This document shows positions 1-46,674 of a stretch of DNA of 46,674 nucleotides, one piece after another (position 1 is the first letter of the stretch; each line of letters opens with the position of its first letter). Under the pieces are notes generated by a model, which ran no database searches, was not told where the DNA came from, and was given only the letters and a program-made list of their open reading frames with translations. The DNA is from Candidatus Zixiibacteriota bacterium (lineage in GTDB: Bacteria; Zixibacteria; MSB-5A5; GN15; FEB-12). Location: NCBI GenBank assembly GCA_044227335.1, contig JBGAWZ010000001.1:1-46674 (forward strand), written 5' to 3'. Position numbers and translations under genes: made by a program.

Positions 1-140
1 GATAACAGCGTATCATTCTCGGTGGCGTTCCACGTTAGGTTGAGCGGTGAATGGCTATCGCCGACCGAATCAACAAGGTGAAAGAGTTCAGACTTGTATG
101 CGTTATTGGGCCATGTTGCGGACGTATCACACATATTCCA
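1..140. repeat. Terminal direct repeat, copy 1 (identical to 46535..46674). Overlap of a circular or circularly permuted genome assembly
   Basis: Bases 1-140 read identically to 46535-46674. The repeat lies inside one continuous minus-strand reading frame. Confidence 0.95.
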
Positions 141-2219
141 AGTCAGGAATAGATCGCTTGCCGAGTTATACTTTTCTGGCGACCAGAATATATCTGTGGC
201 CTTGAAGTAGTAACGGTTAAGGCGGATCGCCCTGACCACACGCTGAGAGTCGAGTCGAGCATAGTCATCGTAGGCGTTGCCGAAATCTGTACCCTTTATA
301 ACCAAGAACGCCGTATCCGCAGACGTAAGCCCCGAATTGTTCCCCCCGATAATCAGCGAGGTCATCCCCGCACCCTTGCCGATCACCACGTTTGGAGTGG
401 CCGACTTGTGAACATCGAGTAGGATAGTACCACCCGCGCCCTTGAGGATATTGGAATCGAGTGATGTTGTCGAATCAAAGTCTGCCGAGCCGTTACCGCC
501 ACCACCCGCAGACGACCATGAGAGATTGCCCGACCCGTCATTGACAAGCGTTTGACTTGACGACCCCTGAGCCGCGGGGAGCGTTAGGTCATAGCTTGTA
601 ATCGCCGAGGCATTACCACGAATCCGAGTGCGGCCAGACGTTGCTCCCTGAAATGCGAAATACCCACCGGGAAGCGTCTTAACCGTGTCGGCTAACACCT
701 GTGACGCCGAATCAATGCGTGACTTATTCGTACCGTCGTACATTCTGATACGACCATGGTAGGCGGCAGAGTCAAACTCGGTCAGTCCAGCGTCGGCAGA
801 TATTTGTAGTTTTCCCGATACCGTGAACTTAGTCGTATCGTTCGCGGTGTCCCTTGTCATAGTCAGCGCAACGTCCTGAGTTGGGTTTGTTGTATCAGAC
901 ACAAACTTAAACGTATTCGACTTCATCCGGGCGACAGCAGATCGGAGTGTATCAATCGTAGCTCGCCCATAATCAAATATCTTCGACCCTATCCCCGTAC
1001 CCCTGAGTGTATCAGAGTCGAACGTATGGTTTGAGGATGACCCGATAATAACGGGGACATCCGCCACCCCCCCAACATAGGTTGGATTAAGATACAGGGC
1101 AGAATCCGAATTGATTGATAGGTAGTTGCTATATCCGCGAATCCCCGACACACTATCAATGCGCTTACCGTTTCCCCAAAAACGAATGTTGTTCCCCATA
1201 TTGAGGACGTTGTTCATTTTCAAGCCACCACTATTACCGGCCCCACCAGAGGTGGTTCCACCAGTGCGCCAAATAGTATAGGTAGATGAATCGTAGATCG
1301 TCCCCATCGTATCTTGGGCCGCAGACCTAAAGTTGTAGACATACTGCGTCCCGTTGTTACGCATGACCCGCACCCAATCGGGTGTGAATATCGCCGTATC
1401 TCCCGGATGTGCGCCAGACTTAATGATATTGAGTCCCGTATCACCGCGCATGGTATATGTCGATACATCCCAGAAGCCACCAGTATACGTTGTTGAACCA
1501 ACCACATAATCAGAGTTGTCAAGCGTCTGATCTATACGAGCGTTGTCACCCGATCCGCTACCACCCGAACCAAACGTCCACGAGTTGAGGCCCGCGTCAA
1601 ATACGGGAACCGTAGAGGCCGACGGTGAACCAGTAACCGTATACCCAAATAGGTTGTTGTCGATATAATACTTAGACTTGTATGCTGAGTCAGAGCTTGC
1701 GGTTGTAACGTGGTAGAGATCACTAAACGCAAACGGGGAAGCGGTTGAATCTACTTCAGTCTTATTGATCGACTGCGCTACAATCTCCGAAGTCCCGGTA
1801 GCCGATCCGTTGACAAAGGAACCGATGACAGTAGACAGATACCCGTTGACGTTCTGTAAACCATCACCGTTGAAACTGATATAGGGGGGAAACGTAAACT
1901 CGGTACTGTTGTTGAAAAGAAACTGGCCCGATCCGCCAGTCCCGATACTCAGAGCCCCTTCAACATCTACATTGCTCTTGGCGACGATTGTCTTTTGAAA
2001 TGTCGCGGTATCTCTGAACCATGACCCGCTTGTCGGGCCGCTCAGCTTAAACTTCGCATACCCCGAAGAGTCGTAGATTTTTACAGTGTCGTTTCCATAG
2101 ATGATAATTGTGGTATCACCATGAAACCTTTTAGCGGGTGAAATGACTGCCGGGGAACCCTGCGCGAAGCATTGGACTCCGATCAGTATAAGCACCGCCG
2201 CCAACAAAAGTCTTTTCAT
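1..2219 (-). CDS. Signal-peptide-bearing tail-fibre/receptor-binding-like protein, N-terminal part. It continues across the circular junction into 46240..46534, for about 837 aa in total
   Basis: Open minus-strand frame from ATG 2219 (MKRLLLAAVLILIGVQCFAQGSP...) to the window edge. It is in frame with the MCDTSATW... ORF at the other end (2219-134 = 2085 = 695 codons). Absent from the ORF track only because it is truncated by the window start. Confidence 0.7.
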   Translation of the reverse strand, partial: MKRLLLAAVLILIGVQCFAQGSPAVISPAKRFHGDTTIIIYGNDTVKIYDSSGYAKFKLSGPTSGSWFRDTATFQKTIVAKSNVDVEGALSIGTGGSGQFLFNNSTEFTFPPYISFNGDGLQNVNGYLSTVIGSFVNGSATGTSEIVAQSINKTEVDSTASPFAFSDLYHVTTASSDSAYKSKYYIDNNLFGYTVTGSPSASTVPVFDAGLNSWTFGSGGSGSGDNARIDQTLDNSDYVVGSTTYTGGFWDVSTYTMRGDTGLNIIKSGAHPGDTAIFTPDWVRVMRNNGTQYVYNFRSAAQDTMGTIYDSSTYTIWRTGGTTSGGAGNSGGLKMNNVLNMGNNIRFWGNGKRIDSVSGIRGYSNYLSINSDSALYLNPTYVGGVADVPVIIGSSSNHTFDSDTLRGTGIGSKIFDYGRATIDTLRSAVARMKSNTFKFVSDTTNPTQDVALTMTRDTANDTTKFTVSGKLQISADAGLTEFDSAAYHGRIRMYDGTNKSRIDSASQVLADTVKTLPGGYFAFQGATSGRTRIRGNASAITSYDLTLPAAQGSSSQTLVNDGSGNLSWSSAGGGGNGSADFDSTTSLDSNILKGAGGTILLDVHKSATPNVVIGKGAGMTSLIIGGNNSGLTSADTAFLVIKGTDFGNAYDDYARLDSQRVVRAIRLNRYYFKATDIFWSPEKYNSASDLFLTWNMCDTSATWPNNAYKSELFHLVDSVGDSHSPLNLTWNATENDTLL

Positions 2220-2265
2220 AAGGTACTACGCTTTCCGGGGCCGTTCGCCCCAAAGGTGCTACGCT
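2220..2265 (-). promoter_or_regulatory. Leader element upstream of the fibre gene: direct repeat AGCGTAGCACCTT / GC hairpin GGGGCGAACGGCCCC / direct repeat AAGCGTAGTACCTT abutting the ATG
   Basis: Read on the minus strand. Same architecture as 17126..17170 upstream of the capsid gene. Confidence 0.5.
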
Positions 2266-2347
2266 ATCTCCACGCCCAATGCGTGATGGTCAAAAGAAAC
2301 AGGGCGAACAGTCCCGAATCAATATAAAGAATCGTCTTGGTTTTCAT
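2264..2347 (-). CDS. 27-aa hydrophobic micro-protein (MKTKTILYIDSGLFALFLLTITHWAWR)
   Basis: ATGA overlap with the upstream gene stop, one TM-length hydrophobic stretch. Below the ORF-track size cutoff. Confidence 0.3.
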   Translation of the reverse strand: MKTKTILYIDSGLFALFLLTITHWAWR

Positions 2348-2568
2348 TTCTCCCTCAGTAGAGTCAATATCGAATCCTGTTTGGCGACAATGATGACCGC
2401 AATACTATCCCGCGAGTTGATATATTGCTGTCGCATGGCCTTGACTCTCTCCCGATCCTTTGATTTGTCGAGCGTCAACCACGCGCACCACGCCGCGATA
2501 AACAGAAACAGGACGAGCGGCATCCACTCGAAGGTTATCCGATGGACTCTCTCCGGTTCAACTCTCAT
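2344..2568 (-). CDS. 74-aa membrane protein with an N-proximal TM segment and a charged helical tail (i-spanin/holin-like shape)
   Basis: ATG 2568 overlaps the upstream TGA (ATGA). TM segment is WMPLVLFLFIAAWCAWL. Confidence 0.5.
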   Translation of the reverse strand: MRVEPERVHRITFEWMPLVLFLFIAAWCAWLTLDKSKDRERVKAMRQQYINSRDSIAVIIVAKQDSILTLLREK

Positions 2569-2795
2569 GGGTGCGCTCCTACTTGTGTAAAGAACCACGA
2601 TACAAACGCAGGGACTACTACTCCGACAACCAGTAATATCCCGATCATCTTTGCCCGATCTATGCGGAGTTCGTCAAGTTGCTTTTTGATTCCCCCGTCT
2701 CCATCCTTACCAAAGACAGCGTCCTTGATCTGGCGAACATCGGTACGGACTTCAATCAGTGTGTCGTGGTCGCTTGAGTGTTGTTGTTCCGGCAT
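2565..2795 (-). CDS. 76-aa tail-anchored membrane protein (C-terminal TM segment MIGILLVVGVVVPAFVSWFF)
   Basis: ORF track. Charged N-terminal half followed by a single C-terminal TM segment. Confidence 0.5.
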   Translation of the reverse strand: MPEQQHSSDHDTLIEVRTDVRQIKDAVFGKDGDGGIKKQLDELRIDRAKMIGILLVVGVVVPAFVSWFFTQVGAHP

Positions 2796-7999: not shown

Positions 8000-10579
8000 T
8001 TACCTCGCGCTTCCTACACCTCTGAAGGTGTGAAAAATCTCTATCGCCTGAACCGAGCCGGTAGCGAAATTATACGAACCAATGCCAAGTGATTGCAATG
8101 TAATAGAGAGTCCCAACCCCCAATTCGCCGATGAGACGTACTTCCCACAGTAGCCAGTCGCCAGACTGTCAAAGGCAATCGCGCTCTCTAAAGCCGTTCC
8201 CTTTTCATTCGTGATTTCTCCAAAGAGAATATCAACCCCGGCAACGGCATCCCTCGCCTGTAGATTCACCTGTAGTATCTGATCGTAGTTGAAGTCAGGA
8301 TAGAGTAATGGAGTCTTGTACGCGATGGGACAGTACGCCCCGGTCTGAACATCTTTGCCGCTTGAGTTGGCGTATTTGTAAAGAGTCGATCCGCCCTTTT
8401 TGAAAAAGTAGAGCGTTTGAGTCGGGGTCAGTCCCACTGTGTTTCCGGTATCGTAGAGACACGCCCCCCCAAACGTCATGTTGGTAAAGGTAGACCATGC
8501 CTGCGCCGCAACATCATAAACGTAGGTAGTGTCTCCAATACACCACAGGGCTTGACGTTGATCGGGAAGGTATGCCCCTACGGCTCTGGACAGAGTAGTG
8601 ACCGACATTTTCTTAAAGTTGTCGAGCTTATCGGATACCAGTCCGCTTACGAAAGTTCTCTCAAGGTTCGGGCCTTCGCTTTCGAGGACAACACCGGCCC
8701 GACTCATGTACATATCTCCACTCTCAACTTTAACATGAGAGAGAGGGGCGATCATTCCATAACCTTCTGAAAGTTCGGCGTCCCTGAAATCCAGTCTCAG
8801 GTTGTAACCCCGATCATCTTTCTTGACTCTGATCGCGTTTCGGGTCAGCCACATTCCGGTTATTTGGTGTCCGTCATTCGGATCAAAGTCGGTGTAGTTC
8901 TGTAGCGGATAATTGGCCTGAGAGTCTACAAGCTGTGACGATCTCCAAAGTCGTGATCCGTACCAACCGAGAACTTGGTTGTTGACAGTAAGACCACCAG
9001 AGAATAACCCCGGACTTGTTTGGAGTTTGAACCGCCCGTTGAGATTTGCAGAATCACACCGGATCGAATCGACCAGAGAGTCTTGACTTGTCGGGACTTG
9101 TGCGACCCTTCTGAAATTGACCGCCGAAAGAGAATCGGTCGCTATTCCGTAGATCGGCCACCATTGACCCTTGAGTGTTCGGGCCGGTTGAATGTTCGTC
9201 CATATCGTATCGTATCTTGTGCATTGCCAACCCCCGGCAGTAAAGATTTCCGCCGCGCACACCAAGAAATACTGTCTCGCATATAGGGTAAGCTCAGAGC
9301 GGTAGACGTTCATCAACAAACCAGACTCATTCGCGCCCACGCGAGGAAGTCCTATCGTGATCCGGTGGAATCCGAGCGTCGAATCTTTCCGTTTCTGTCT
9401 AACCCAAAGAGTCCTGCCGGTATCAGATTCTAAACCCGTGAAGGTATCGACTATGGCGGTAGTGTAGGCATACCCCATATTCAGGTTGTCATGGTTCCCC
9501 GCCGCGCCCGCCCACATTTGATTTGCTCCACCAGTCACCGTATCAGAGCGTATAAACGTCGGCGCACTCCATCGTCTGTTTGAAATCACAGCCAGTGAAT
9601 CTCTACCATGAACCGATCTTAATGCAGTGGGATGGAGTAAGGAACCAAGCGAGGCGTCGGCGATGTTATCCGTGTAGGTAACTGTATCTGCCGTATAGTC
9701 CGCGCCGATCTTCAAATATATCTTGGTTGTGCTGATCCGAAACAGTGAGTCATTGTCACTAAACTCCCCCGGATTCGATCTTGTCCGGGCAATGTAGCAG
9801 TAGGCGGAGTCAACAGAGGAAAGCAATGAGTCCCGCACAACCCGCCCAAAGTTGCGGAGTAGCACCTGTCCGTTGCTTACGAAAATAGGGGGAGAGAGCG
9901 TACCGGCCTCAATCGAGTAACTAACACCACTTTTGAAAGCAGTGATGAGGTAGATGGCATATCTGTATTCCCCGTTCAGATTCCCCGATGTTGTAAGAGG
10001 GATCAGCTGGGGCAGTCCCGGAGCTTGCAGGGGGATGTTTCTCGCGTAGGTTCCATCCCAAATTATTCCTGTCTGCTGTCCATTGAAAGCGTAGAGCCGG
10101 TCGTTGAACTGGAAAAACGTGGTCGGTTTCTGTACTGACCAGTTTGTTGCAATCAATCTTGCTGAATCCAGATTCGTAGACCCGTACTGAGTCGCCCACA
10201 GACAACCATATCCTTTTGAGGTTGAATCAGTCGCAAAGACCAAACAGCGTTGACCATTGGCAAGGTTTACAACTCCAATCGCAATGATCGAATCGGCTCC
10301 GCTCTTGACACTGATCGAATCGAAACCCGGTCTCTTTGACAGAGTGCGAATACCGAACTTTGACAGCACGATGTTGTTGCAGATTCGCGCATATCGGGAG
10401 TCAATATCTCCGTCACCATCAACTGTGTTCAGTCCGAGAAACCCCGATATGCGGTCGAACTTCACGGGGTTTGTCTGCGCGTGACAGGTCGAGGACAGCA
10501 GTAGAGCCACGATAAGCAGAACGCCGATGATCGCGCCAAAGAAGGTTATGAATCTGAGGAAGTTCCGCGACTCGCTCAT
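8000..10579 (-). CDS. 859-aa tail nozzle/tubular-protein-B-like candidate (beta-rich, propeller-like) with an N-terminal signal peptide
   Basis: Size and position match podovirus nozzle genes. N-terminus is MSESRNFLRFITFFGAIIGVLLIVALLLSSTCHAQT. ATGA overlap with the upstream gene. Confidence 0.45.
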   Translation of the reverse strand: MSESRNFLRFITFFGAIIGVLLIVALLLSSTCHAQTNPVKFDRISGFLGLNTVDGDGDIDSRYARICNNIVLSKFGIRTLSKRPGFDSISVKSGADSIIAIGVVNLANGQRCLVFATDSTSKGYGCLWATQYGSTNLDSARLIATNWSVQKPTTFFQFNDRLYAFNGQQTGIIWDGTYARNIPLQAPGLPQLIPLTTSGNLNGEYRYAIYLITAFKSGVSYSIEAGTLSPPIFVSNGQVLLRNFGRVVRDSLLSSVDSAYCYIARTRSNPGEFSDNDSLFRISTTKIYLKIGADYTADTVTYTDNIADASLGSLLHPTALRSVHGRDSLAVISNRRWSAPTFIRSDTVTGGANQMWAGAAGNHDNLNMGYAYTTAIVDTFTGLESDTGRTLWVRQKRKDSTLGFHRITIGLPRVGANESGLLMNVYRSELTLYARQYFLVCAAEIFTAGGWQCTRYDTIWTNIQPARTLKGQWWPIYGIATDSLSAVNFRRVAQVPTSQDSLVDSIRCDSANLNGRFKLQTSPGLFSGGLTVNNQVLGWYGSRLWRSSQLVDSQANYPLQNYTDFDPNDGHQITGMWLTRNAIRVKKDDRGYNLRLDFRDAELSEGYGMIAPLSHVKVESGDMYMSRAGVVLESEGPNLERTFVSGLVSDKLDNFKKMSVTTLSRAVGAYLPDQRQALWCIGDTTYVYDVAAQAWSTFTNMTFGGACLYDTGNTVGLTPTQTLYFFKKGGSTLYKYANSSGKDVQTGAYCPIAYKTPLLYPDFNYDQILQVNLQARDAVAGVDILFGEITNEKGTALESAIAFDSLATGYCGKYVSSANWGLGLSITLQSLGIGSYNFATGSVQAIEIFHTFRGVGSAR

Positions 10580-12504
10580 TTCTTCAACTCCTGCCCTCTG
10601 GCTCTGATCGCCGCCACTTCTCTTTCATAGAGCTTTCCGTATCCCTCAACATTCGTCCAGTTGCTCATTATGATCTCACACTTTTGACACGCTTTGTATA
10701 TGAGTAGCTGTCGGTACTCTCTCGCAATATCAGTCGAGTCAGCATCGTTCGTCATGTAGTGGCCGTTGGCGTAGTATTCCACAAGGAACGTATCGACCGC
10801 AATTTCTTTCGGGTGCGTCTGCAATCTCCGACCGAAGGTGAAATAGTATCGAGGTGAAGAGGCATCCCCCCTCTTTTGCAGGACGCCTCCCATTCCACCG
10901 GAGAGATCAAAGAGCGAATCTTCAGAGACGTATATCAAGGGAATCCTGAGCGAGTCTTTGCCCATTTTCTTGAGCGAGTGAATCCGCAGGAAATCGGCGT
11001 TAAGCGCAACCCCCTCTCCCGTACTGGTCATTATCACCGTGTCGTATTTCTCGACGGCAGGGAGTTCTCGACATATCTCCGGTACAGAGGAATTGATTGC
11101 AAACTTGGCGACTCCCAGAGTGATCTTTGCGTTACCAGTCGAGGGAAATCCAAGTTGAGCCATGACCGCCGCCGCGAGTGAGTCAAGTCGATTGGAGATA
11201 TTTGTCAGTGGCAGGGTATCGCCGCAAGCGACTTGTAAGTAGTCCGTGTCGTGAACGGATCGCAATGTACTGGCGGCGTTCTGAATCGAGTCAAGAATAA
11301 CATTGACCGTATCACGAACCTTATCAAGTAGGGTAGTGTCAAACGTGGTAGCCGCTACCGCTTTCACGCTATCACCCGAACCGCCAGCGAATCCGATATA
11401 CTTTGACGTGTCGGCGAATAGGGCCGCTTTCACCTGTGCCGCAGTCGCACCAGACCCAGAAGCCCGGAGTGTGGACGATCCATTCTGCAACGTATCAAGA
11501 ATCGCATAGGTAGAGTCTTTCGTCACGAGGGAGCGATTCAACATCGTATCGCGTTGCGCCACCGTCCACGTCGTATTGGTGTCCACCCGTAAGGACGAAT
11601 TGACATTCTGGAGTGTGTCGAGTATCTCTTGTACAACAAGTTGGAATCTGCCGGTATTGTCGTAGGTTTTCAGGGTATCGAGCAACTCCTGTACGACCAA
11701 CTGGAACCGGGTAGCATTGTCGTACGTTTGGAGCGTATCGAGTATCTCCTGAACATCCGCCTGAAATCTTCCGGCATTGTCATAGACCTGAATTGAGTCT
11801 GCCGAAATGCGGGCATAGATCACCGCGTTGTGTATCGAGTCCCTGACCCAGTTGTCGTAGAGTTGGATACTGTCAAGTATCTCTTGAGCATCGGCTTGAA
11901 ATCGACCGGCGGCATCGTAGGTTTGTAGGGTATCAAGTATTTCCTGAACGTCGGCCTGAAACCGAGTAGCGTTGTCATAGACCTGCAAAGTATCAAGAAT
12001 AGTTTGGGTTGTTGCCCCTAAGTCCTTGGCCGTCTGTGATGTTCCGGCGACAGTCTTTACCTCATCAATCAAAGTATCCGCATATATCTCCATCGAGAAT
12101 TGCGTCTGAAACGGTGCGCCGAGTCGCCATAGAGTCACAACACCGGCGATCTGTCTTGTTGTTGTTCCTGCATTTATGATCCTTGCGGTGTCACAGAATA
12201 CAAACATTGGTGCGCCAACTGTATCGGCGCGTATCCCAAGAGCCGCAAGACCTGCCGCCGTAACGGTTGTCGTGCTTGTCCCGTAAATGACCTGAGATGT
12301 CGCCGCTCCCGTATCAGCACCAGTAGTAGCCCACACCGCAATAGTCGCGCTATCGGGCCATTTGATTGCGTTGTAGACACCCGTATCCATCGCGGGGTTG
12401 AGCGGGAAGTTCACAAGGCGAAGTGCCAACTTCTTACCAAGATCAATAGCTCCCACTTGCGAGGCGATTAGCGTGACAAAAATTAGAGCAATAATCCGCT
12501 TCAT
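10576..12504 (-). CDS. 642-aa fibre-like protein: signal peptide, 20-aa tandem repeats, and a C-terminal domain paralogous to the 228-aa protein at 13271..13957
   Basis: N-terminus MKRIIALIFVTLIASQVGAID. Repeats of the ILDTLQxYDNxxRFQxxVQE type. The C-terminal ~200 aa look roughly half identical, by eye, to the 13271..13957 product. Confidence 0.55.
   Translation of the reverse strand: MKRIIALIFVTLIASQVGAIDLGKKLALRLVNFPLNPAMDTGVYNAIKWPDSATIAVWATTGADTGAATSQVIYGTSTTTVTAAGLAALGIRADTVGAPMFVFCDTARIINAGTTTRQIAGVVTLWRLGAPFQTQFSMEIYADTLIDEVKTVAGTSQTAKDLGATTQTILDTLQVYDNATRFQADVQEILDTLQTYDAAGRFQADAQEILDSIQLYDNWVRDSIHNAVIYARISADSIQVYDNAGRFQADVQEILDTLQTYDNATRFQLVVQELLDTLKTYDNTGRFQLVVQEILDTLQNVNSSLRVDTNTTWTVAQRDTMLNRSLVTKDSTYAILDTLQNGSSTLRASGSGATAAQVKAALFADTSKYIGFAGGSGDSVKAVAATTFDTTLLDKVRDTVNVILDSIQNAASTLRSVHDTDYLQVACGDTLPLTNISNRLDSLAAAVMAQLGFPSTGNAKITLGVAKFAINSSVPEICRELPAVEKYDTVIMTSTGEGVALNADFLRIHSLKKMGKDSLRIPLIYVSEDSLFDLSGGMGGVLQKRGDASSPRYYFTFGRRLQTHPKEIAVDTFLVEYYANGHYMTNDADSTDIAREYRQLLIYKACQKCEIIMSNWTNVEGYGKLYEREVAAIRARGQELKK
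11605..12006 (-). repeat. In-frame 60-nt (20-aa) tandem repeat array, about 6 units with one expanded or degenerate unit. Two more isolated ILD(T/S)(L/I)QN motifs lie downstream
   Basis: Repeated ...ILDTLQ(V/T)YDN(A/T)(T/G)RFQ(A/L)(D/V)VQE... visible in both the protein and the DNA. Confidence 0.85.
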
Positions 12505-13274
12505 TTATTTGTCCTTGAATTGGCAGTTCTTCGCGTTCGATTGTAGGTAGCCGTTGCCACAGGATAAACCGCCTTCGTGTAGACCACCTTCAGCTTCGGA
12601 CGATTCCCACTGGTCGCGTTGTCGTCGGTGTAGATTTGACACAGTTGATCCCATGTAGTGTAACTCCCATACCATGGGAAATAGAAAATGAACCCCCCAT
12701 GCGTTTTAGCTGTGTCGCCCGCATCCATTGTCTGCGCCACCGCCGTCAAATCAAACTTACCAACCGAATCCGTCCCCCAAGAAAATGTTGCCCAGTTGTA
12801 TGTGATACTGACTGTTGTGTCAATGTCGTTAGATACGTTGCGCCCACCGCTTGTGTTCCACGTTGTCAATGCTTTGTAGTTTTCCCAAGAAGCTCCCGTT
12901 TCCGTCCACTTCGTGGGCGACGTGACTCCACGCCTCACCCGCGCACACTTGAATTGACCGGTCGTAGCGCGGTCGAGCGTTCCGAGATTACTTTTCACAA
13001 TAAGCGTACACGCCTTGATGTAGAGATTTGCGCCACCATGATTTAGTGAGTCCCCAAGGGCGTCCCATCGGAATAAGAGATTAGCACTCTGAGAAGTCGG
13101 GACAGAATCATACCACCATGCAGTTGTGTTTGTACCGTAATTCGTCGTAGTCGCCGCCTGATTGATATACGTCATATCACATTCGGGGCCAGTACCAGCC
13201 CCGATAGTGAACGTCGTGTCGGCGAACACCGTGACAGCACACAGTAAGAGAACTATGAGGGCAAGGTATTTCAC
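12501..13274 (-). CDS. 257-aa signal-peptide protein with a DNRLRE-like (carbohydrate-binding-like) domain pattern
   Basis: GTG start with GTGA overlap. N-terminus MKYLALIVLLLCAVTVFADT. Motifs ...TNYG...LLFRWD...GANLYIKACTLIV...NRPKLKVVY resemble the DNRLRE domain consensus recalled from memory. Confidence 0.45.
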   Translation of the reverse strand: MKYLALIVLLLCAVTVFADTTFTIGAGTGPECDMTYINQAATTTNYGTNTTAWWYDSVPTSQSANLLFRWDALGDSLNHGGANLYIKACTLIVKSNLGTLDRATTGQFKCARVRRGVTSPTKWTETGASWENYKALTTWNTSGGRNVSNDIDTTVSITYNWATFSWGTDSVGKFDLTAVAQTMDAGDTAKTHGGFIFYFPWYGSYTTWDQLCQIYTDDNATSGNRPKLKVVYTKAVYPVATATYNRTRRTANSRTNK

Positions 13275-13957
13275 CGCTTGAGCTCCTCGCGTCGTGACAC
13301 CGGAGGCAGTCGCATTTCGTTGTACATACTATCCACCGAAAACGCAGACCTGAAATCCGATAGCTGAATGAGTGCTTTCATTCTCACCTTGAGTAACAAA
13401 GCGGGCCGGTAATCATCTGGAATCAATGTCGTATCTGAATCGGCCCCCAAGTAATTAGGCGTCGCAAAGTATTCGATCAGAAACTTGTCGGGGCTTCCCG
13501 ATTCTCTGAGTCCCTTCGGATGAGTCTGGAATCTTTTCCCAAACGTCGAATACCAGTGCGGGCTTTCGATCTTGTCCCGATCTTGTTTGACTCCCTGCAA
13601 TCCACCCGTCTTTTCAAAGAGACTGTCGGGGTTCGTTACGTCAAGCGGAATCCGTAAAGTATCTCCTATGATCCTCGAAGCTCGGTGTATTCGTAGGAAA
13701 TCAGAGTTGAGAGCCGCGCCTTCCCCTGTTTTGGAAATCAGAACCGTATCGAACTTCTCTATTGCCGGAAAGTCTCGTGACACCTCTACGGCAGATTCGT
13801 TGATAAACATATTCACGTTCGCAGTGGTCAGCTTTCCATTTGTAGACGGTAATCCGAGAGCTGTATATGTATACGCTCTCAGTGAATCCCTACGGGGGGA
13901 GATCGCCCAAGAGGATTGAGCGAGAATGAGTAGAAAGCATACGAGCTTTGTCACCAT
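13271..13957 (-). CDS. 228-aa signal-peptide protein, adaptor-like domain, paralog of the 642-aa protein C-terminus
   Basis: ATG 13957 (TGATG overlap). N-terminus MVTKLVCFLLILAQSSWAIS. Shared blocks are AIEKFDTV..TGEGAALNSDFLRIH..LRIPL..DSLF and FG(K/R)R(F/L)QTHPK. Confidence 0.5.
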   Translation of the reverse strand: MVTKLVCFLLILAQSSWAISPRRDSLRAYTYTALGLPSTNGKLTTANVNMFINESAVEVSRDFPAIEKFDTVLISKTGEGAALNSDFLRIHRASRIIGDTLRIPLDVTNPDSLFEKTGGLQGVKQDRDKIESPHWYSTFGKRFQTHPKGLRESGSPDKFLIEYFATPNYLGADSDTTLIPDDYRPALLLKVRMKALIQLSDFRSAFSVDSMYNEMRLPPVSRREELKR

Positions 13958-14649
13958 CAATATCCATGCAGAGAGTTCATGTTTTGGAATCGTTGCCGCG
14001 TGGATTGATCGAGGGAAGCCGGATCGGATTCCGCGTTTGAACCCTGATAGCTTGAGACCATGTTATTGAAACTGGCCTCCGCCGTTTTCGCGTAACCCGG
14101 AACAAACTTCTTGATGATATTATCGACAATCACACCCTCCCACCCTTTCGGCCACTGTTCACAACTGAGATTGTTCTTTCGATACCGATAGCGGATTGTA
14201 TCGCCAGAAGAGATCGGAGACCCGGCAAGCTCTACGACGGGCTTGTCATTCTGTCTGGCAGTTCTAATCCAATACTTCACAACCGTCAGTAATGACCTGT
14301 CGGGATAGAGCGAGTCAAGTGTGGTATCATCTATTGAATTAAGTAGCTTGAGGGTCGCGCCATATCGAATGTTGATGATGTCCCTTGCGTCCTGTTTCTT
14401 CCCTTCAAGTTTGTACTCGGACACATTCGCCAGAGACCCACCGGGGAAATCCGTCACGTCGCAAGTGAAATCAAAATCTTGGTGAGCACACTCATCCACG
14501 CTAATATCCACCTCTAACTCTACCGCCTTTTGAAGGTCAGCGATAGGATAGTCCTCTTGCACCAAGGCGTTACCAACAACCGCTACTCTTTTAAGTCCGC
14601 GTATTGCGGGTTTAGACATCACAAGAGCGACGAAATCCGCTTTTGTCAC
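13957..14649 (-). CDS. 230-aa head-tail adaptor-like candidate (no signal peptide)
   Basis: GTG start with GTGA overlap. Lies downstream of the capsid genes. Loose pattern resemblance to the 13271..13957 domain. Confidence 0.35.
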   Translation of the reverse strand: MTKADFVALVMSKPAIRGLKRVAVVGNALVQEDYPIADLQKAVELEVDISVDECAHQDFDFTCDVTDFPGGSLANVSEYKLEGKKQDARDIINIRYGATLKLLNSIDDTTLDSLYPDRSLLTVVKYWIRTARQNDKPVVELAGSPISSGDTIRYRYRKNNLSCEQWPKGWEGVIVDNIIKKFVPGYAKTAEASFNNMVSSYQGSNAESDPASLDQSTRQRFQNMNSLHGY

Positions 14650-22953: not shown

Positions 22954-22965
22954 TGAAAGGTATAA

Positions 22966-39676: not shown

Positions 39677-39980
39677 CAATCCTCATTTCGTTCGCCATGA
39701 GTAACCGGGTGACAACGTGAATCAGTTGGTTCGACCCGCTCTCCTTGTCAACGTGGTTTCCGGTAAGGTACTGCGTTAGGTGAGCGCGGGCGTGGGCCAG
39801 ATGATCCTCGACGGTGTGATCTTTCCATTCCATATCGTGAGGGTGAGTCGTGGCCCCGTGTTCCATGAGCCCTGAGATTTCCGCAAGCGTAGCCGGGAAA
39901 TATCGCTCTAATAGTAGCTTGACACCGGGAGAGAATACAACACTCCCGACTATCGGTTGGTTCCCGTTGTCTCCCGACAT
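39666..39980 (-). CDS. 104-aa DUF5664-like (dATP/dGTP diphosphohydrolase-like, MazG-related) helical protein
   Basis: Pattern FPATLAEISGLMEHGA......W........HLAHARAHL......VDKESGSNQLIHVVTRLLM resembles that family. By-eye only. Confidence 0.4.
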   Translation of the reverse strand: MSGDNGNQPIVGSVVFSPGVKLLLERYFPATLAEISGLMEHGATTHPHDMEWKDHTVEDHLAHARAHLTQYLTGNHVDKESGSNQLIHVVTRLLMANEMRIDEG

Positions 39981-40397: not shown

Positions 40398-41255
40398 CTA
40401 CCATGTGAGACGATAGTTCGATTGATCCGGTACACTTACATCTCTTGTGATTGCTGAAACCGAACCAGTCCCGATAGAGAGCTTGTACTTGGCCCCCGCG
40501 AAACAGGATGACCACTTGAGTTCTATTGAGAAATACCCGTTGGCCCCCGATACGCATTTCTTTGACCGGGTAATCAGGATCGTCGAGTCGCAAATATCGT
40601 TTACCTTTTCCGGCAGTGTGAAGGTCAATTCAATGTCTGCCGTTTGAAGATTCTTTGACACATCCCCAAGATACCCCCAGACCACACAGGTTTTCGGTGC
40701 TCCGGGGATGACCGAGGTAGAGGACAGGGAATCCCAACTTAGTTGATTGGCGAATGAGACCGGGTAGGTTTCGCCGTCGTAGTAAATGTCAAAGACTGTC
40801 TTGTACTGGGTGTCTCTTTTGGCGATTTGGTAATACGCTCCCACATCGAGGGCTTGAATCGCGCCGAGATTCGTGGTTGTGACAAGCGTCCCGTTCTCCC
40901 AATACTTGCCGATGATAGAATCTACGTCATCCGTGAAATAAGCGACAGTCGGCCAATTCACAGAGAGCTTACTTACCAACAGGTTGTAATCTTCCCGATA
41001 GCTCGTCCACCGTGAGCCGTTGAACTTGTAGAGGAAAAGTATCTGCAACAGAGAATCAGACCCGATCTCATAGGTCGTGTCTATCCCACTGAAACTTGTC
41101 TTGATGATCGAATCGTCAACAGACCCGTCAACGAGCCGGTATATGATACAGGAGTCGTAGACCTGTCCGAGATTCAGATGGACGGGGTAGGTCGCCGCGC
41201 CCGCGATAGACCATATTCCCGACATCAGGAAAATGGTCAATAGCAATCGTTTCAT
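40398..41255 (-). CDS. 285-aa signal-peptide protein, beta-sandwich-like (C-terminal CarboxypepD_reg-like pattern)
   Basis: N-terminus MKRLLLTIFLMSGIWSIAGAATYP. The C-terminal pattern VVWGYL...ELTFTL...ANGYFSIEL..GAKYKLSI is seen by eye. Confidence 0.45.
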   Translation of the reverse strand: MKRLLLTIFLMSGIWSIAGAATYPVHLNLGQVYDSCIIYRLVDGSVDDSIIKTSFSGIDTTYEIGSDSLLQILFLYKFNGSRWTSYREDYNLLVSKLSVNWPTVAYFTDDVDSIIGKYWENGTLVTTTNLGAIQALDVGAYYQIAKRDTQYKTVFDIYYDGETYPVSFANQLSWDSLSSTSVIPGAPKTCVVWGYLGDVSKNLQTADIELTFTLPEKVNDICDSTILITRSKKCVSGANGYFSIELKWSSCFAGAKYKLSIGTGSVSAITRDVSVPDQSNYRLTW

Positions 41256-41623
41256 TTTTTCGCCTCAACTATCAGTGATTTCAAAGTGATCGTCTGATCG
41301 ACCGGAGATTCTGTTTCGGATAGATTCATCCTGAGAAAAGCGGACAGAGACGCTAAGTCGTTTCTTGTGAGAGTGACAGTTACATCCCCGATCTTCACTA
41401 CCCTTTTGGCCGCGTAGATGGTGTCTGATTCGGTGATCTTTATCTCCGTGATCTTCTGTAACCCGTTGCCAAGATCAACCCGCGCTGTATCCGCTTTGAT
41501 GATTCTGAGTTGTTCGACATAGAGTAGCGTCGAATCTTTGGGGGCCGGATTCGGTAGAATCTTCCCGGCCTGAGCTACGTTGATGAATACCAGAATGAGA
41601 ATTGCGCTGACTACTGACTTCAC
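41252..41623 (-). CDS. 123-aa signal-peptide protein
   Basis: GTG start preceded by TAAGGAG. N-terminus MKSVVSAILILVFINVAQAGK. Confidence 0.5.
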   Translation of the reverse strand: MKSVVSAILILVFINVAQAGKILPNPAPKDSTLLYVEQLRIIKADTARVDLGNGLQKITEIKITESDTIYAAKRVVKIGDVTVTLTRNDLASLSAFLRMNLSETESPVDQTITLKSLIVEAKK

Positions 41624-41687
41624 GATAAACTCCTTAGTTTGGGGTTGCCTAAAGAAAAGGATTTGTTTTTTGACAGGTCAAGGGAAA

Positions 41688-44600
41688 TCACGGTTTCACC
41701 TTACCTGTGACTTTGATCTTACCCCTGTAGCTCCGGCTGTAAGTGACTCCACAATCGTCGTCTGTGATCGTACCCGTTCCGGTGGGGTCAATGATGGTCA
41801 GCGTGGCGGGGGAGACACCTGTTATTGATACCGTGAACGCCCGACTTGCCTGACACCCGCTCCGGTTGGTTGTCGGGACTGTGACGGTCGTTGACGTTGA
41901 GCCAATCGGGATAGACTTGCTCCCGCTTGTGGCGGTGTAGTCCGTTCCACTAAGAGCCGTCCCGTTGGCTGTTGAGTAGTTGAACGTGGTCAATACCGCT
42001 TGGGCGGCAGACAGCGTAACCGTGAAGGTAGCCGTACCACCCTCAGTTACTGTGGCGTCACCGATAGAGATTGTGCCAGTAGATGATTGGTTGAACCCCG
42101 CGTTGGCGAGTATCGTGTCTTGTGAAAATACCCGCGCCTGACCGTTGGCGAGAGTGAACGTTGACCCGCCAGACAATGCCGATGGTTTCCAGAAAGCATT
42201 GTAGTTTTGTGGTCCCAGCCCCGCCGAGTCGGCAAAGTTATCAATTAACTCGTACCACGTTCCCGTAGGAAGGGTGACGTTGATATTTGTGGTCGCTCCG
42301 TATATGCCAGCCCCGAATCCACCATACGGAAACCGCATAGCAACAAAGGTTAGGGGTGTACCCGGAGTATTCGGATTATCAAATGTCGCCTTCCATACTT
42401 TATAGGTAGTTCCGCTTCCATCCGTCCCGGTTTGCGACGTATCTCTCGTGTTGTTTGGGACACCGAAGTATTTCCCCCAAGCGTCCGACCACAGAAAATC
42501 AGAGTCCGATAGTTTCGTTACCGTCGAACAAACCCACGATCTTGACGATCCGAAGTTATGATAAAAGTCGTTTGCGTCCTGTGAATACTGTCCCGACTGC
42601 CAACGGGGGAACATCCATAACTGCGATCCATTGGTTCGGGAAAACTCACACATGAGCATCGCACCGAGATAATTCATCTTTTGGCGGTTGATACTTAGGT
42701 GGGCAACGCAGAAACTATCCACCCATCCAACGGGGTAATAACCAAGCACGAGGTTGACCGCGCTATCCTTTAGCGCATAGGCCAACGACGGGAAATACTT
42801 GAGTGCGGAATAGGAATATGAGTAGAAGTTAGACATAGTTTCGTTCAGCATTGAGCCGCGATATACGACCGTTGCGTGCCTACCCTCCACCTTAAACCCG
42901 GAATCAAGTTGTGATGCCTGAAGCCCCCACCAAGAAGCTCCGTTTGGAATCAATATCTTGTTATTCGCGGCCATCGAATCGGAGAGCGTTTTCCCCCATT
43001 TATTCGCCCGCCAAGACACTTGAGAGTCGGGCATATTGGCGATGTTAATTCCAGTGAACGGAACAACAATAGAATCGCGTCCAACCGTCCATTCGCTTGC
43101 GGCGTATGGTTGGAATCCTGCGTTATTAGGGAATAAACCAGTCAGCCGCGTTTCTTCATCCATCATTATTCCGTCCAGCCCCGTACTTGTCATACCAGAC
43201 TTGAACCGACTATACAAATAGGAGCCGAACTGCCAGCGTCGAGCGTCAAATAGGTATCGCAAGTGTATAGACGCCGTGCTTCCCATGTACATTCTGATAA
43301 ACTTGTTTCCGCCCGGAGTGGTATACGGAGCACCATCCGCCGTCCCGGTATTCCCTATAACAATAGCGGAATCCGCCACTTGTGGACCAGTACGAAGAAA
43401 CATGGAATCTACAGGGATACCACTTGATGTAGAAAACGCCGCTATATTCGCGGAATCTGTTCCAGCGCGGGAGTATAAATCGTATCCGATAACTTTTAGG
43501 TTGGGGTTAATCCCCTTCATGTATGATACACCAGACGCATCAGCACAGGTTGTGACGATCATCGAGTATCGGTTAGCAAACCAATCCCTCATCGCTGGCA
43601 CATAGCCCCCAAAATTACATGACCAGATCGGGGCATAGTAAGCGAGGACGCCAATACGTAATTGTTTTGAACGTGGGGCGGGGTTGGTGCCACTCGGAGC
43701 CGTACAGTCTGAACAGGTCGTGGTCCCGTTCCCCTGATATACTCCACTCAATTCTGTACACTGTGCTTCGGTAACAACCGCACAAGTATAGTTATAACAA
43801 CACGCTCCCGTAGGTGTACTTGGCGCACCGCCACAGGTTCCGGTTGTGTAGGATTGGTAGTAGCCAATGTCAAACGGGGCTTTCGATGCTTGGGCTGATC
43901 CGTATACCCCGATAGCGTAGGTGGAGTCACCACAGTTGACAAGGGGTGAGGCCGCGTCGAGTCTGAAATCACCTGCCGCAGAGTCTACGAATCCGAACGC
44001 TGTTTGATCGTGCTTGTTGCTATCGAGTCGTGAGTACGGATAGGTCGCCGATGATGTCCCGTAGTAGTAGCAACTATCGAAAGCGTTCTTCTTGAACTCT
44101 GCAAAGTTGACCGTCACCGTCTGAGTCGATGTCGTACCAAAGATCATTTCCGCCCGATTGAATCCGGTGTTGTTACCGATCAGTATGTTGCCAACCATCT
44201 TGACGCCATTGTACGTCATGTTGCCAACTGCCGTATGCTCAAACCCGACAGCAGACGCGGCGGGAGAACCACCATACTCGGCGTTGATCGTGTTGTAATA
44301 TAGATAGGCGTGAGGCGGGGGAGTCGTACTCGGATAGAACGTAATCGCCGACCGACCACCACCAGAGATAAATCTTATGTCGTTATTGCGGATCGTCCAT
44401 CCAGTGTCTCCCGCATGAAGGATAATCCACTCGTGAGTTGTGGTCGTTCCGTAACCGTAGCAGGAGTCGATCAGTCCGCTAATGTCTGCGGAGCTTGCCG
44501 TTGCGATGGTGAATCCAAAGCCGGTAATCGTACAGTGTTTGATCTGCACATAGTCGCCACCGATCAGAATACCGTAGGAGTTCGCGCCGAATGACACGCT

Positions 44601-45473
44601 GTTTAGTTCTTGAATTGTGCAACCCTGAATGACGGTAGAGTCCTGATTGTTGATGTAGATACCTTTTTGGTCGCCCTCGCTCCCGCCGTTAGCGTCGATA
44701 GTGATTGTTGACGCCCATACCGTATCTTTTATGCCACCAGAAATCAGTACCGCGCCGTTGTTGTTGATGACTGGTAGATTGAACGTACACTGGTCAACCT
44801 TATGCCCCGTCACGCTAATAAATGCCACGTTTGAGGTATCAAAGAAGCACTTGTAAATTGTCGTGGTAGATGCGGCGCGGCCACTGGCGTTAAACTCCAC
44901 GCCGCCGGTAAATGCCGCCCGTATGAATCCCTTGAACCGTACACCCGAAAGCGTGATAGCCGCCGTTGTGTTGCCAACGTAGAATCTACCATACCCGTTC
45001 GTGGCTGGTTGATACATATATATCTGAGCCGCGTTCGCGGGGTTGGTTACGTTGACACTGATCGAAACCGTTGAGTTTGGCCCCGGCTCTACGTCATAAG
45101 TAAATCCCGCGTCATGCTTGAGATAGAGGTATGACGTTGCCGCCATTGTGAGCGTACCACCGTTACTTGAACTGAACGGAGCCGACGCCCTGTTGCCCAA
45201 GACAACCGCGTTACACATAAGACCCATACCCGCCGTGAACGCGAGTGTGCCAGTGGATCGCACAAAGATCATGCGAACAATCGGAGTCGTGATCGAATTG
45301 GCCGCGTCAACGGTAAGTGTATGTCCCGCCGCTACGATTATCGTATCGTTGACACCAAACGACAGGGCTGAGAGATTCCCCGATCCTGACGTGGTAACAG
45401 TCGTCGCCCCCGCCGGTATCGTTATACAGATAACCGACAGCAAAAGTATGGAAACTAATCGTATTTTTACCAT
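41688..45473 (-). CDS. About 1261-aa secreted multidomain protein: signal peptide, right-handed beta-helix, Cys-rich linker, TIM-barrel glycoside-hydrolase-like region, C-terminal Calx-beta domain (depolymerase/tailspike-like)
   Basis: Beta-helix repeats and terminal motif FVDSAAGDFRLDAASPLVNCGD. GLDGIMMDE-type block. Calx-beta at nt 41754..42077 (GDATVTEGGTATFTVTLS...GTALSGTDYTA...ITDDD). ATG 45473, with TTG 45479 as the alternative. Confidence 0.6.
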   Translation of the reverse strand: MVKIRLVSILLLSVICITIPAGATTVTTSGSGNLSALSFGVNDTIIVAAGHTLTVDAANSITTPIVRMIFVRSTGTLAFTAGMGLMCNAVVLGNRASAPFSSSNGGTLTMAATSYLYLKHDAGFTYDVEPGPNSTVSISVNVTNPANAAQIYMYQPATNGYGRFYVGNTTAAITLSGVRFKGFIRAAFTGGVEFNASGRAASTTTIYKCFFDTSNVAFISVTGHKVDQCTFNLPVINNNGAVLISGGIKDTVWASTITIDANGGSEGDQKGIYINNQDSTVIQGCTIQELNSVSFGANSYGILIGGDYVQIKHCTITGFGFTIATASSADISGLIDSCYGYGTTTTHEWIILHAGDTGWTIRNNDIRFISGGGRSAITFYPSTTPPPHAYLYYNTINAEYGGSPAASAVGFEHTAVGNMTYNGVKMVGNILIGNNTGFNRAEMIFGTTSTQTVTVNFAEFKKNAFDSCYYYGTSSATYPYSRLDSNKHDQTAFGFVDSAAGDFRLDAASPLVNCGDSTYAIGVYGSAQASKAPFDIGYYQSYTTGTCGGAPSTPTGACCYNYTCAVVTEAQCTELSGVYQGNGTTTCSDCTAPSGTNPAPRSKQLRIGVLAYYAPIWSCNFGGYVPAMRDWFANRYSMIVTTCADASGVSYMKGINPNLKVIGYDLYSRAGTDSANIAAFSTSSGIPVDSMFLRTGPQVADSAIVIGNTGTADGAPYTTPGGNKFIRMYMGSTASIHLRYLFDARRWQFGSYLYSRFKSGMTSTGLDGIMMDEETRLTGLFPNNAGFQPYAASEWTVGRDSIVVPFTGINIANMPDSQVSWRANKWGKTLSDSMAANNKILIPNGASWWGLQASQLDSGFKVEGRHATVVYRGSMLNETMSNFYSYSYSALKYFPSLAYALKDSAVNLVLGYYPVGWVDSFCVAHLSINRQKMNYLGAMLMCEFSRTNGSQLWMFPRWQSGQYSQDANDFYHNFGSSRSWVCSTVTKLSDSDFLWSDAWGKYFGVPNNTRDTSQTGTDGSGTTYKVWKATFDNPNTPGTPLTFVAMRFPYGGFGAGIYGATTNINVTLPTGTWYELIDNFADSAGLGPQNYNAFWKPSALSGGSTFTLANGQARVFSQDTILANAGFNQSSTGTISIGDATVTEGGTATFTVTLSAAQAVLTTFNYSTANGTALSGTDYTATSGSKSIPIGSTSTTVTVPTTNRSGCQASRAFTVSITGVSPATLTIIDPTGTGTITDDDCGVTYSRSYRGKIKVTGKVKP

Positions 45474-46240
45474 CTCCAATTATCTTTCTGTCGGTAGAAC
45501 AGTTTTTCGGGTGCGCGTAATGTCGTAGTGTGCAATGTTGCAGATCGAATCACCACGTTTGGTGTAGCAGAGGGTGAACCACCACCGCCTGCCGTGTAGC
45601 TTATCCAGAGAGAGTCATAGGACGTTCCGGCTGTTGGGAAATCCATACCCCTCGTCGCTCGATTCGACGGACTTCCAGATACTCCTATTGTCATCATTGT
45701 AATGTTGTTTCCACTCGTCCATCCCGCCCTGTCAATAATCTCTTGTAAGACTGTTTTGGTATGGGCGTATGGCAATTTGTATTTTGTCCCCGCAACCCAC
45801 GACGTTGTGGTGCTTATCCATGCCGTATCTCTTGCTGTCGTAGCGGACGCCCATGCAGACCGAAAGCCTGAAGTGTCAACTACTTGGACGCCATTATCAG
45901 CGTCGTAGGCGGCAATCGCAACGATAAACGAATCCGACGAGTTTGCTCCCGACTTCACCCAATACTCAACCGAGTCAATAGTTGACCCCTGTGGGATGTC
46001 AATGGCAGTGAACCTCGTTGATTTTGCATAGAACCACGCACCCGTCATCCCAAGATATAGTAGCTGAGTTGTGGAGTCCGGGTTCGCACCACCAAGCCAC
46101 GCACCAGTGAATGTCGCATTCGCATTTGCCGCCCCATTCCAGTCATCAGAACTTGCGCTTGGCTTTCCAGTTTCAACCGTACCCCACGCTGATCCCGCCA
46201 TGATGGCGAGATATATGGCGAGATATATGATCCGCTTCAT
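45467..46240 (-). CDS. 257-aa signal-peptide protein, DNRLRE-like/CBM-like pattern
   Basis: True start ATG 46240 (TAATG overlap, AGGAGA SD). N-terminus MKRIIYLAIYLAIMAGSAWGTVE. Confidence 0.5.
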   Translation of the reverse strand: MKRIIYLAIYLAIMAGSAWGTVETGKPSASSDDWNGAANANATFTGAWLGGANPDSTTQLLYLGMTGAWFYAKSTRFTAIDIPQGSTIDSVEYWVKSGANSSDSFIVAIAAYDADNGVQVVDTSGFRSAWASATTARDTAWISTTTSWVAGTKYKLPYAHTKTVLQEIIDRAGWTSGNNITMMTIGVSGSPSNRATRGMDFPTAGTSYDSLWISYTAGGGGSPSATPNVVIRSATLHTTTLRAPEKLFYRQKDNWRW

Positions 46241-46674
46241 TAGTATCTCCTCATGTTGAGATAGGCCCACTCACACCTGACTCGTTTAGCTGATGTCGCC
46301 GTAACCTGTGTCTCAAACCAAAGCATAACCGTCACTACGTCACCGGGGACAATTTGCCTGTCTGTGAAGTTCACCGAATCCTCGGTTGGTGTAAGCGAAT
46401 ACGTCTTACCAATGAACACCGAATCAACCTGAGTACGGTTGACATAAAGTAGCGCGTAGTTCGGGTACATGATCTTCGATGTATCGGTTGACCCTGTACC
46501 CGCGAGTGAATCGGATGCGTATTTCCATTTGAAGGATAACAGCGTATCATTCTCGGTGGCGTTCCACGTTAGGTTGAGCGGTGAATGGCTATCGCCGACC
46601 GAATCAACAAGGTGAAAGAGTTCAGACTTGTATGCGTTATTGGGCCATGTTGCGGACGTATCACACATATTCCA
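46240..46674 (-). CDS. C-terminal part of the fibre-like protein whose N-terminal part is 1..2219 (split only by linearisation of the circle)
   Basis: The frame stays open to the window end, and the last 140 nt duplicate 1..140. Confidence 0.7.
   Translation of the reverse strand, partial: WNMCDTSATWPNNAYKSELFHLVDSVGDSHSPLNLTWNATENDTLLSFKWKYASDSLAGTGSTDTSKIMYPNYALLYVNRTQVDSVFIGKTYSLTPTEDSVNFTDRQIVPGDVVTVMLWFETQVTATSAKRVRCEWAYLNMRRY
46535..46674. repeat. Terminal direct repeat, copy 2 (identical to 1..140)
   Basis: Direct comparison of the two window ends. Confidence 0.95.

Follow-up and report, generated by a model that had tools for sequence, protein, structure and literature searches.

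The particles of tailed phages are taken to assemble in the cytoplasm, and signal peptides in phage proteins are usually read as marks of lysis proteins or of host-modifying cargo. Here we describe a block of five minus-strand genes, designated A to E in coding order, in a stretch of 46,674 nucleotides (nt) from contig JBGAWZ010000001.1 (hereafter the window), which represents a circular phage assembly of 46,534 bp. The N-termini of all five predicted proteins are genuine-looking, conserved signal peptides of the Sec and signal peptidase I (SPase I) type, as judged from sequence, and similar peptides are predicted on the adaptor-like and nozzle-like proteins of the same phage. We tentatively read the block as the exported distal part of the tail.

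The closest described architecture is the tail of the T7/SU10 type. The adaptor of SU10 is a dodecamer between portal and nozzle with the architecture of T7 gp11 (PMC9509320). Capsid, adaptor-like, nozzle-like, three ejection-type and fibre-like genes follow each other in the window in the same order as in this tail type. T7 differs in that its gp11, gp12 and gp17 are without signal peptides, whereas here an SPase I peptide appears to be added to every external tail protein, and in that extra signal-peptide proteins lie here between adaptor and nozzle. The beta-helix tailspikes and depolymerases of HK620, Sf6, CBA120 (TSP3) and the Klebsiella K1 lyase resemble the fold modelled for residues 24-478 of C; unlike them, C has a signal peptide instead of a particle-binding N-terminal domain, and enzyme-like and Calx-beta domains C-terminally. 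Secreted barrel proteins of Zixibacteria and Ignavibacteriales (P0043-P0048; L009-L019) have an initial signal peptide, as C does, and are 27-32% identical to its middle domain, but they end in fn3 plus FlgD-Ig/CHU_C-like or dockerin-like regions, whereas C ends in Calx-beta and carries its barrel-like domain behind a beta-helix. Finally, phages of Porphyromonas gingivalis encode SPase I peptides that expose an N-terminal Gln, in hosts of the Fibrobacteres-Chlorobi-Bacteroidetes (FCB) group (PMC10367356). There the peptides occur on a few small proteins of unknown function that are read as host-surface modifiers, whereas here they occur on adaptor, nozzle, fibre-like and depolymerase-like proteins; these proteins of the Porphyromonas phages are the nearest precedent for exported phage tail proteins.

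Bases 1-140 of the window are identical to 46535-46674, and gene A is split by the artificial record ends at this exact 140-bp terminal duplication. All long open reading frames (ORFs) lie on the minus strand, and minus-strand ORFs are also present at 30.3-34.7 kb. The order on the coding strand is terminase, a portal-size gene, a scaffold-like gene, a capsid-size gene, three small genes, a first block of signal-peptide proteins (229, 257, 642 and 859 amino acids, aa), proteins of 177, 254 and 1303 aa, small membrane proteins, and A to E. The terminase has only distant similarity to phage terminases (<32% identity), and the 1303-aa protein matches an internal-virion-protein PHROG at 6e-19. From this order and the match of the 229-aa protein to the SU10 adaptor family, the predicted genome layout is T7-like, or podovirus-like. 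We take the phage for an uncultivated podovirus whose host is probably an FCB-group bacterium of Zixibacteria- or Ignavibacteria-like affiliation; homologues of the barrel-like domain of C in reference genomes of Zixibacteria and Ignavibacteriales suggest such a host range. The features concerned are as follows, in coding order, with a slash at each predicted cleavage site.

13271..13960, minus strand: portal adaptor-like protein, 229 aa, signal peptide MMVTKLVCFLLILAQSSWA/IS
10576..13274, minus strand: two more signal-peptide proteins, of 642 aa (with an adaptor-like C-terminal domain) and 257 aa (12501-13274)
8000..10579, minus strand: hub/nozzle protein, 859 aa, signal peptide ...SSTCHA/QT, then the motif F-x-G-L-N-T
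2264..2795, minus strand: three small membrane-protein ORFs (76, 84 and 27 aa), directly upstream of A
2219..1 then 46534..46240, minus strand: gene A, 837 aa, crossing the junction, with its first 739 codons in 1..2219
46240..45467, minus strand: gene B, 257 aa
45473..41688, minus strand: gene C, 1261 aa from ATG; an alternative TTG start two codons upstream is possible
41623..41252, minus strand: gene D, 123 aa, GTG start
41255..40398, minus strand: gene E, 285 aa
40390..39980, minus strand: endolysin, 136 aa, without signal peptide, matching phrog_465 at 1.1e-30 and Peptidase_M15_4 weakly, after a 7-nt gap from E
36819-37334, minus strand: outer-membrane-protein-like (OMP-like) protein, 171 aa, Q-rule signal peptide GSAFA/QL

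The starts and stops of A to E overlap or lie within 7 nt of each other, save for 64 nt between C and D. Because of these overlapping or near-touching starts and stops, A to E and the endolysin read as a single late gene string; scans of the block for sigma-70 promoters and intrinsic terminators gave background level only. The block amounts to about 8.3 kb, or 18% of the genome.

Signal peptides were called by inspection together with a crude hydrophobicity-and-charge screen of 44 ORFs, a second and stricter version of which flags none of T7 gp11, gp12 and gp17. In each of the five N-termini a start with K/R is followed by a hydrophobic run free of charges and, some 19-23 residues from the beginning, by small residues at -3/-1; positively charged start, hydrophobic core of 7-15 residues, small -3/-1 residues and a total of 18-25 residues, as in Sec/SPase I substrates, are found in all of them. 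The predicted cleavage sites are CFA/QG in A (complete peptide MKRLLLAAVLILIGVQCFA/QG), AWG/TV in B (...MAGSAWG/TV), AGA/TT in C, AQA/GK in D (...INVAQA/GK) and AGA/AT in E (...WSIAGA/AT). In spite of sequence drift these features are retained in the orthologues of A, B, C and E on the related contigs L003, L007 and L008, and in the B-like and C-like proteins of L002, where a tail-tube gene is present, and of L006, whose tail type is not known. The screen picks ten proteins: A to E, the four at 8000-13960 and the 171-aa OMP-like protein. A preliminary description of this DNA had listed five genes between the membrane-protein trio and the endolysin, with cleavable-looking signal peptides on all of them and ten Sec-targeted-looking proteins in the genome; the genes are present at the lengths given there, the peptides bear up well in the orthologues, and the count of ten is reproduced by the screen.

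Gln occupies position +1 of the predicted cleavage site in A, the nozzle and the OMP-like protein. The latter is 50% identical to L003:16814-17311 and has no match in Pfam, NCBIfam or PHROG. No C-terminal sorting domain of the type IX secretion system (PF18962, CHU_C, TIGR04183/04131) was found in A to E at E<=1, so Sec alone would bring these proteins no further than the periplasm before lysis. A C-terminal sorting signal common to the signal-peptide proteins was likewise not found, basic-plus-aromatic ends being common to A, B and E only.

The identity of the adaptor and nozzle is central to the interpretation of these peptides. The 229-aa protein matches SU10_adaptor (PF24175) at 9.4e-10, with 39.7 bits against a gathering score of 27, and also phrog_2941. 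The 859-aa protein itself has no PHROG match. A HMMER search for its family yielded 208 cluster representatives, typically of 800-1000 aa (clusters at 50% identity; the clade holds at least 208 clusters). Matches in the C-terminal 200 residues connect 17 of 53 members to phrog_511 and 10 to phrog_3287, both families of virion proteins, and 6 to phrog_578 (Hc3, P22-gp10-type head closure); one member matches a 'phage stabilization protein' by tblastn, and in the T7 proteome the family profile finds gp12 alone below E 0.01, weakly, with 7 bits. Via its family, the 859-aa protein is predicted to be homologous to the hub/nozzle proteins P22 gp10 and T7 gp12. Judged by eye, the mature nozzle start IRDF-G-LNT...P-EA...HN also resembles the gp12 start IKNLKGGISQQP.... 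A search of PDB sequences with the nozzle-family profile returned nothing, and tblastn of the nozzle and adaptor of this phage, as of A and C, against 50,697 deposited phage records gave no match.

Across the nozzle family an N-terminal hydrophobic 9-mer is present in 109 of 119 long members, with K/R ahead of it in 103. The first strongly polar residue behind this segment is Gln in 69 of the 109 (background 9.9%, p = 7e-42), so that Gln at +1 is enriched about six-fold and seen in ~63% of the segment-bearing members. At these Gln sites position -1 is A, G or S in 60 of 69 and position -3 V or A in 48 of 69, while position -2 is often bulky, F being commonest (18/69). The predicted peptide has a median length of 18 residues and its uncharged run a median of 15. 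About 10 of the 119 members start straight at the conserved motif. A nozzle form without signal peptide, started at an internal ATG, finds no support, a Met occurring in the linker of 5 of 97 sequences, which is below background. The predicted nozzle-family peptides follow the 'Q-rule' described for SPase I substrates in Bacteroidetes, which is also frequent in Ignavibacterium (PMC5837995) and in Bacteroidetes is tied to cleavage and periplasmic cyclisation (PMC5837995, PMC10653852).

In three more distant relatives from IMG/VR (L020-L022) the terminase, portal, capsid and internal virion/ejection proteins are without signal peptides, whereas the protein in adaptor position, the nozzle and every downstream fibre-like protein carry them. 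Taken with the peptides on adaptor and nozzle, this split points to a clade rule that external tail proteins have signal peptides, not to one that non-virion proteins have them. The ejection-type proteins of 177, 254 and 1303 aa in the window (2813-7997, minus strand) contain no cysteine at all; mature C has 22 and the mature nozzle 12.

Gene A lies downstream of the internal virion proteins, in the position of T7 gp17. Its seven homologues are full-length, 48-58% identical and all equipped with a signal peptide. The mature chain starts with about 100 variable residues, continues as a long Gly/Ser/Thr/Asn-rich, beta-rich shaft and ends in a beta-sandwich at about residues 710-835 with the invariant end YLNMRRY. 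Compared with L007/L008, this phage shows 28% identity in the nozzle, 21-28% in the first ~100 mature residues of A and 53-63% in the remainder of A, as would be expected if an anchor specific to the tail were fused to a shaft and tip specific to the host. For A the AlphaFold model is poor (predicted local distance difference test, pLDDT, 39), as expected of a trimeric fibre, and usable only for the last ~125 residues; Foldseek compares this sandwich model weakly with CBM6, CBM35 and CBM36 modules (E 4e-4 to 1e-2), so that the tip may be carbohydrate-binding-module-like (CBM-like), a weak assignment. Hidden Markov model (HMM) searches of Pfam, PHROGs and NCBIfam gave nothing usable for A; in Pfam and PHROG there was no match, including to the gp17 N-terminal attachment domain PF03906, and A has no sequence match to the T7 fibre.

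Gene C encodes a signal peptide (residues 1-23), a right-handed beta-helix (24-478), a highly conserved helix end (479-545), a Cys-rich linker (544-593), a barrel-like domain (598-1126) and a Calx-beta domain (1144-1221). The AlphaFold model shows the right-handed helix at pLDDT 70-88, and Foldseek matches it to the HK620, Sf6 and CBA120 tailspikes, the Klebsiella K1 lyase and many phage proteins of the pectate-lyase superfamily, with E of about 2e-3 in the PDB and down to 3.6e-5 in BFVD. Calx-beta (PF03160) is borderline at residues 1144-1221, with 27.5 bits against a gathering score of 27; the modelled region matches CBD1 structures in Foldseek with probability 1.0 and a template-modelling score of about 0.6 on the target. 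The linker (residues 544-593, 43695-43844) is a stretch of 50 residues with eight cysteines, TGTCGGAPSTPTGACCYNYTCAVVTEAQC...CSDC, with four differences in P0042; its appearance is that of a disulfide-knotted module, as would suit a protein folded outside the cytoplasm.

The barrel-like domain of C comprises 529 residues and has no match in Pfam, NCBIfam or PDB sequences, even by profile. Foldseek hits from its low-confidence model are GH66, GH168 and amylase barrels, with E of about 1e-3. It has full-length bacterial homologues, 27-32% identical over the 529 residues, in which the domain stands directly after a signal peptide and is followed by the fn3 and FlgD-Ig/CHU_C-like or dockerin-like ends; the weak FlgD_ig/CHU_C matches belong to these bacterial homologues only and not to A to E. 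The D-E of DGIMMDEE is invariant in 12 sequences, and further residues are invariant with it in the bacterial homologues. A scan of IMG/VR with C as a single protein found nothing. As modelled, C would combine folds typical of polysaccharide-acting proteins, and this much is supported.

Gene B encodes a small beta-rich protein; in 6 of 6 genomes its homologues adjoin C-like genes. The tail at its C-terminus, ATPNVV[IV]R...RAPE..FYR..NW[RK]W, occurs in the podovirus group only. B has no Pfam or PDB match, and a B-family profile found nothing among PDB sequences. The 8-residue word SATPNVVI occurs identically in A (at residue 606, about 404-427) and in B (at residue 224, about 45548-45571); both families conserve ATPNVV[IV], and the longest word shared in 300 shuffles was 6. 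The word may be a docking or strand-swap element that ties B, and with it C, to A. Gene D was seen in this phage only (the same sequence occurs on contig L001), without a counterpart in L003 or L008. E has five cysteines and a conserved C-terminus YR[LV][TK]W, lies directly upstream of the endolysin, and has orthologues in L003 (34% identical) and L008 (21%). Neither D nor E has a family match in Pfam, PHROGs or NCBIfam.

These results permit a comparison with the polysaccharide-binding and -degrading domain signatures that the preliminary description had seen in the block. Its Calx-beta in C stands, by Pfam at threshold and by the match of the model to CBD1. Its beta-helix stands as a modelled fold with tailspike and lyase matches, but not as a Pfam family, since Beta_helix (PF13229), Pectate_lyase and the GHL families have no HMM match in C. 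The DNRLRE label given there to B has to be withdrawn: NF033679 has no match to B at E<=1, nor to B plus three orthologues at E<=5, and a sub-threshold match (22.7 bits against a cut-off of 34) lies on the other 257-aa protein, 12501-13274. That protein is 73% identical to L006:7487-8329, which stands right after the B-like and C-like genes of L006, so that the two signal-peptide blocks of this genome are contiguous in another phage.

In every relative, one to three small single-pass membrane proteins are encoded immediately upstream of the signal-peptide fibre/depolymerase block, in the podovirus group, L002 and L006 alike (L002:9708-10004, L006:3077-3340, L003:6415-6702, L007:9612-9824, L008:9576-9988). 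They may be holin-like or an assembly aid.

We propose that A to E form the distal portion of the tail, with host-recognition and depolymerase roles, which is exported and built in at lysis, the surplus remaining as free enzyme, a reading that in our estimate falls somewhat short of probable. A would be a trimeric-fibre-type protein, with its variable N-terminal ~100 residues matched to its own tail, a conserved shaft and a CBM-like tip. B and C would form a fixed pair, in which C is depolymerase-type, with a tailspike-like helix, an enzyme-like barrel borrowed from host-type secreted proteins and Calx-beta, and B serves C as a small partner or adaptor; accessory roles would fall to D and E. 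All five would be made late, from the tightly packed gene string shared with the endolysin, exported by Sec and cut by SPase I like the adaptor and nozzle of the same phage, and as a consequence would fold in the periplasm. They would meet the DNA-filled heads only once the inner membrane is breached at lysis, with the surplus acting as free enzyme. The genes, the features of their signal peptides with their conservation, the evidence on domains and folds, the synteny and the division between head and tail proteins across the clade are shown by the data above; we infer Sec export, peptide cleavage, incorporation into the virion, enzymatic activity and the time of head-tail joining. Membership of the particle is favoured, at least for A, by gene position, by the lack of another fibre candidate after the ejection genes and by the pattern of divergence.

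Extended to the clade, this proposal would mean that a large, wholly uncultivated podovirus clade of FCB hosts sends all of its external tail parts (portal adaptor, nozzle, fibres and depolymerases) out by way of Sec, and that the tail joins the DNA-filled heads of the cytoplasm only at lysis, which we regard as doubtful though worth stating. Maturation in the periplasm would then consist of cutting the signal peptide, cyclising the N-terminal Gln and forming disulfides, possibly with help from the small single-pass membrane proteins encoded just ahead of the fibre block. In the literature, of which coverage was incomplete, we found no podovirus adaptor, nozzle or fibre protein reported to have a signal peptide, an absence of evidence only, and no description of a whole external tail assembled in the periplasm.

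Several observations weigh against the proposed exported tail. We know of no precedent for heads joining a periplasmic adaptor and nozzle only at lysis, and such late joining would leave the packaged DNA held by other proteins in the meantime. C lacks an N-terminal particle-docking domain, its helix starting at the predicted mature N-terminus, a start region that is also conserved in L008. Together with its signal peptide, the N-terminal half of C shares 36% identity with a protein of L002, the phage with a tail-tube gene. The barrel-like domain is modelled poorly (pLDDT 25-75), with an alternating strand-helix pattern. A, B and C are better conserved between these phages than the nozzle, which could also be due to a self-contained cassette with no need to match the tail. 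The missing anchor of C, the B-C pair across tail types and the conservation of A-B-C above that of the tail core thus favour a free role for B to E. The evidence for the particle and that for a free role would be reconciled by a branched arrangement with B as the link between C and A; this arrangement is suggested by the SATPNVVI word and is offered as a lead only.

Such a free role is the substance of the first alternative, by which B to E, and perhaps A, are not part of the virion but are exported by Sec, wait in the periplasm and are released at lysis, where they digest or bind extracellular polysaccharide of the host for the escape of progeny and access to neighbouring cells. The conserved signal peptides agree with it, as do the helix of C directly behind its peptide, the occurrence of the same half of C with a B partner in phages with a tail-tube gene, and the origin of the second domain of C in a family of secreted bacterial proteins. 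In both phage types the block is also flanked by small membrane proteins on one side and by the endolysin on the other; in L002 the C-like protein lies beside the B homologue in just this interval. Signal peptides, however, fail to separate virion from non-virion proteins here, as they are also present on adaptor and nozzle; with A to E set aside, nothing downstream of the ejection proteins is left as a candidate for fibre or receptor binding, although the 257- and 642-aa proteins of the first block could serve; variation at the N-terminus of A parallels that of the tail core; and lysis frees cytoplasmic proteins anyway, so that export would give a free enzyme no gain in access in a host with two membranes. 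On balance we consider this alternative unlikely. The preliminary description had preferred it, as a secreted glycan-attack toolkit released or displayed around lysis rather than carried on the particle: the conserved signal peptides, the folds of C and its lack of an anchor speak for that picture, while the exclusion from the particle that it assumes is not supported and the gp17 position of A speaks against it, and the step from signal peptide to absence from the particle fails on the adaptor (PF24175) and nozzle, both obligatory parts of the virion with the same peptides. Of the polysaccharide-related domains on which it drew, Calx-beta and the modelled helix are retained, without GHL or Beta_helix HMM matches and without DNRLRE on B.

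A second alternative would have the tail, A to E included, assembled in the cytoplasm, with uncleaved hydrophobic N-termini kept in the particle, for example buried at interfaces, where they aid membrane contact or penetration in the following round of infection. It would preserve the ordinary order of adaptor and nozzle assembly; the segments are found on every external tail protein and on no head or ejection protein, as for a shared structural or entry role; and the roughly 10 of 119 nozzle-family members that begin at the motif mark the segment as an add-on to a standard nozzle. Against this, the segments bear the full signature of cleaved SPase I substrates and not of a membrane anchor (run median 15, V/A at -3, A/G at -1, six-fold Gln at +1), the Sec system would normally capture such sequences, and internal Met is not enriched as for a peptide-free form. 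We therefore hold this alternative to be quite unlikely.

That the block is cargo unrelated to particle or lysis, which remodels the surface of the infected cell, for example by excluding other phages, like outer-membrane or lipoprotein morons, is very improbable: the Q-rule proteins of P. gingivalis phages are interpreted in this way (PMC10367356) and the genome also holds the 171-aa OMP-like gene with a signal peptide, but the block takes up nearly a fifth of the genome (about 8.3 kb, 18%), lies within the late structural-lysis string with overlapping starts and stops, contains a fibre-like protein and a tailspike-like beta-helix, keeps its position across relatives, and stands in a window in which no integrase was noticed, no systematic search for one having been made.

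Some further features of the window were recorded. Three genes downstream from the endolysin lies an ORF of 100 aa that has about three hydrophobic segments and is holin-like (features at 37783-38085, 38561-39679 and 39666-39980, minus strand); the interval between endolysin and ORF includes a metallophosphatase-like protein, which falls just short of the Pfam threshold, and a protein whose N-terminal domain is that of a dATP/dGTP diphosphohydrolase (PF18909, 1e-11). A tRNA-Pro (TGG) is located at 22965-23037 on the minus strand (ARAGORN and Rfam), and a 111-aa ORF at 22695-23030 which overlaps it is probably no gene. Two adjacent putative DNA-methyltransferase-like genes (329 and 221 aa; 23156-24807, minus strand), labelled from a reading of motifs, are near-identical in their first 22 residues, M[NT]LPINQIITGDCLEVMRGWPD, which suggests a tandem duplication.

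Canonical, host-adapted signal peptides here mark core tail, fibre and depolymerase genes across a large uncultivated clade. If the peptides are used, tail assembly would be split between compartments and the exposed tail proteins would gain a periplasmic maturation; such compartment-split assembly, if true, would be a pathway undescribed for any tailed phage. If they are not used, podovirus tails would contain a conserved N-terminal element of a new kind. In both cases, automatic annotation which equates a signal peptide with a 'non-structural' protein would attach the wrong label to the receptor-binding genes of such phages. In addition, the block draws attention to an enzyme-like domain family, as yet without a name, that is common to Zixibacteria/Ignavibacteriales and their phages.

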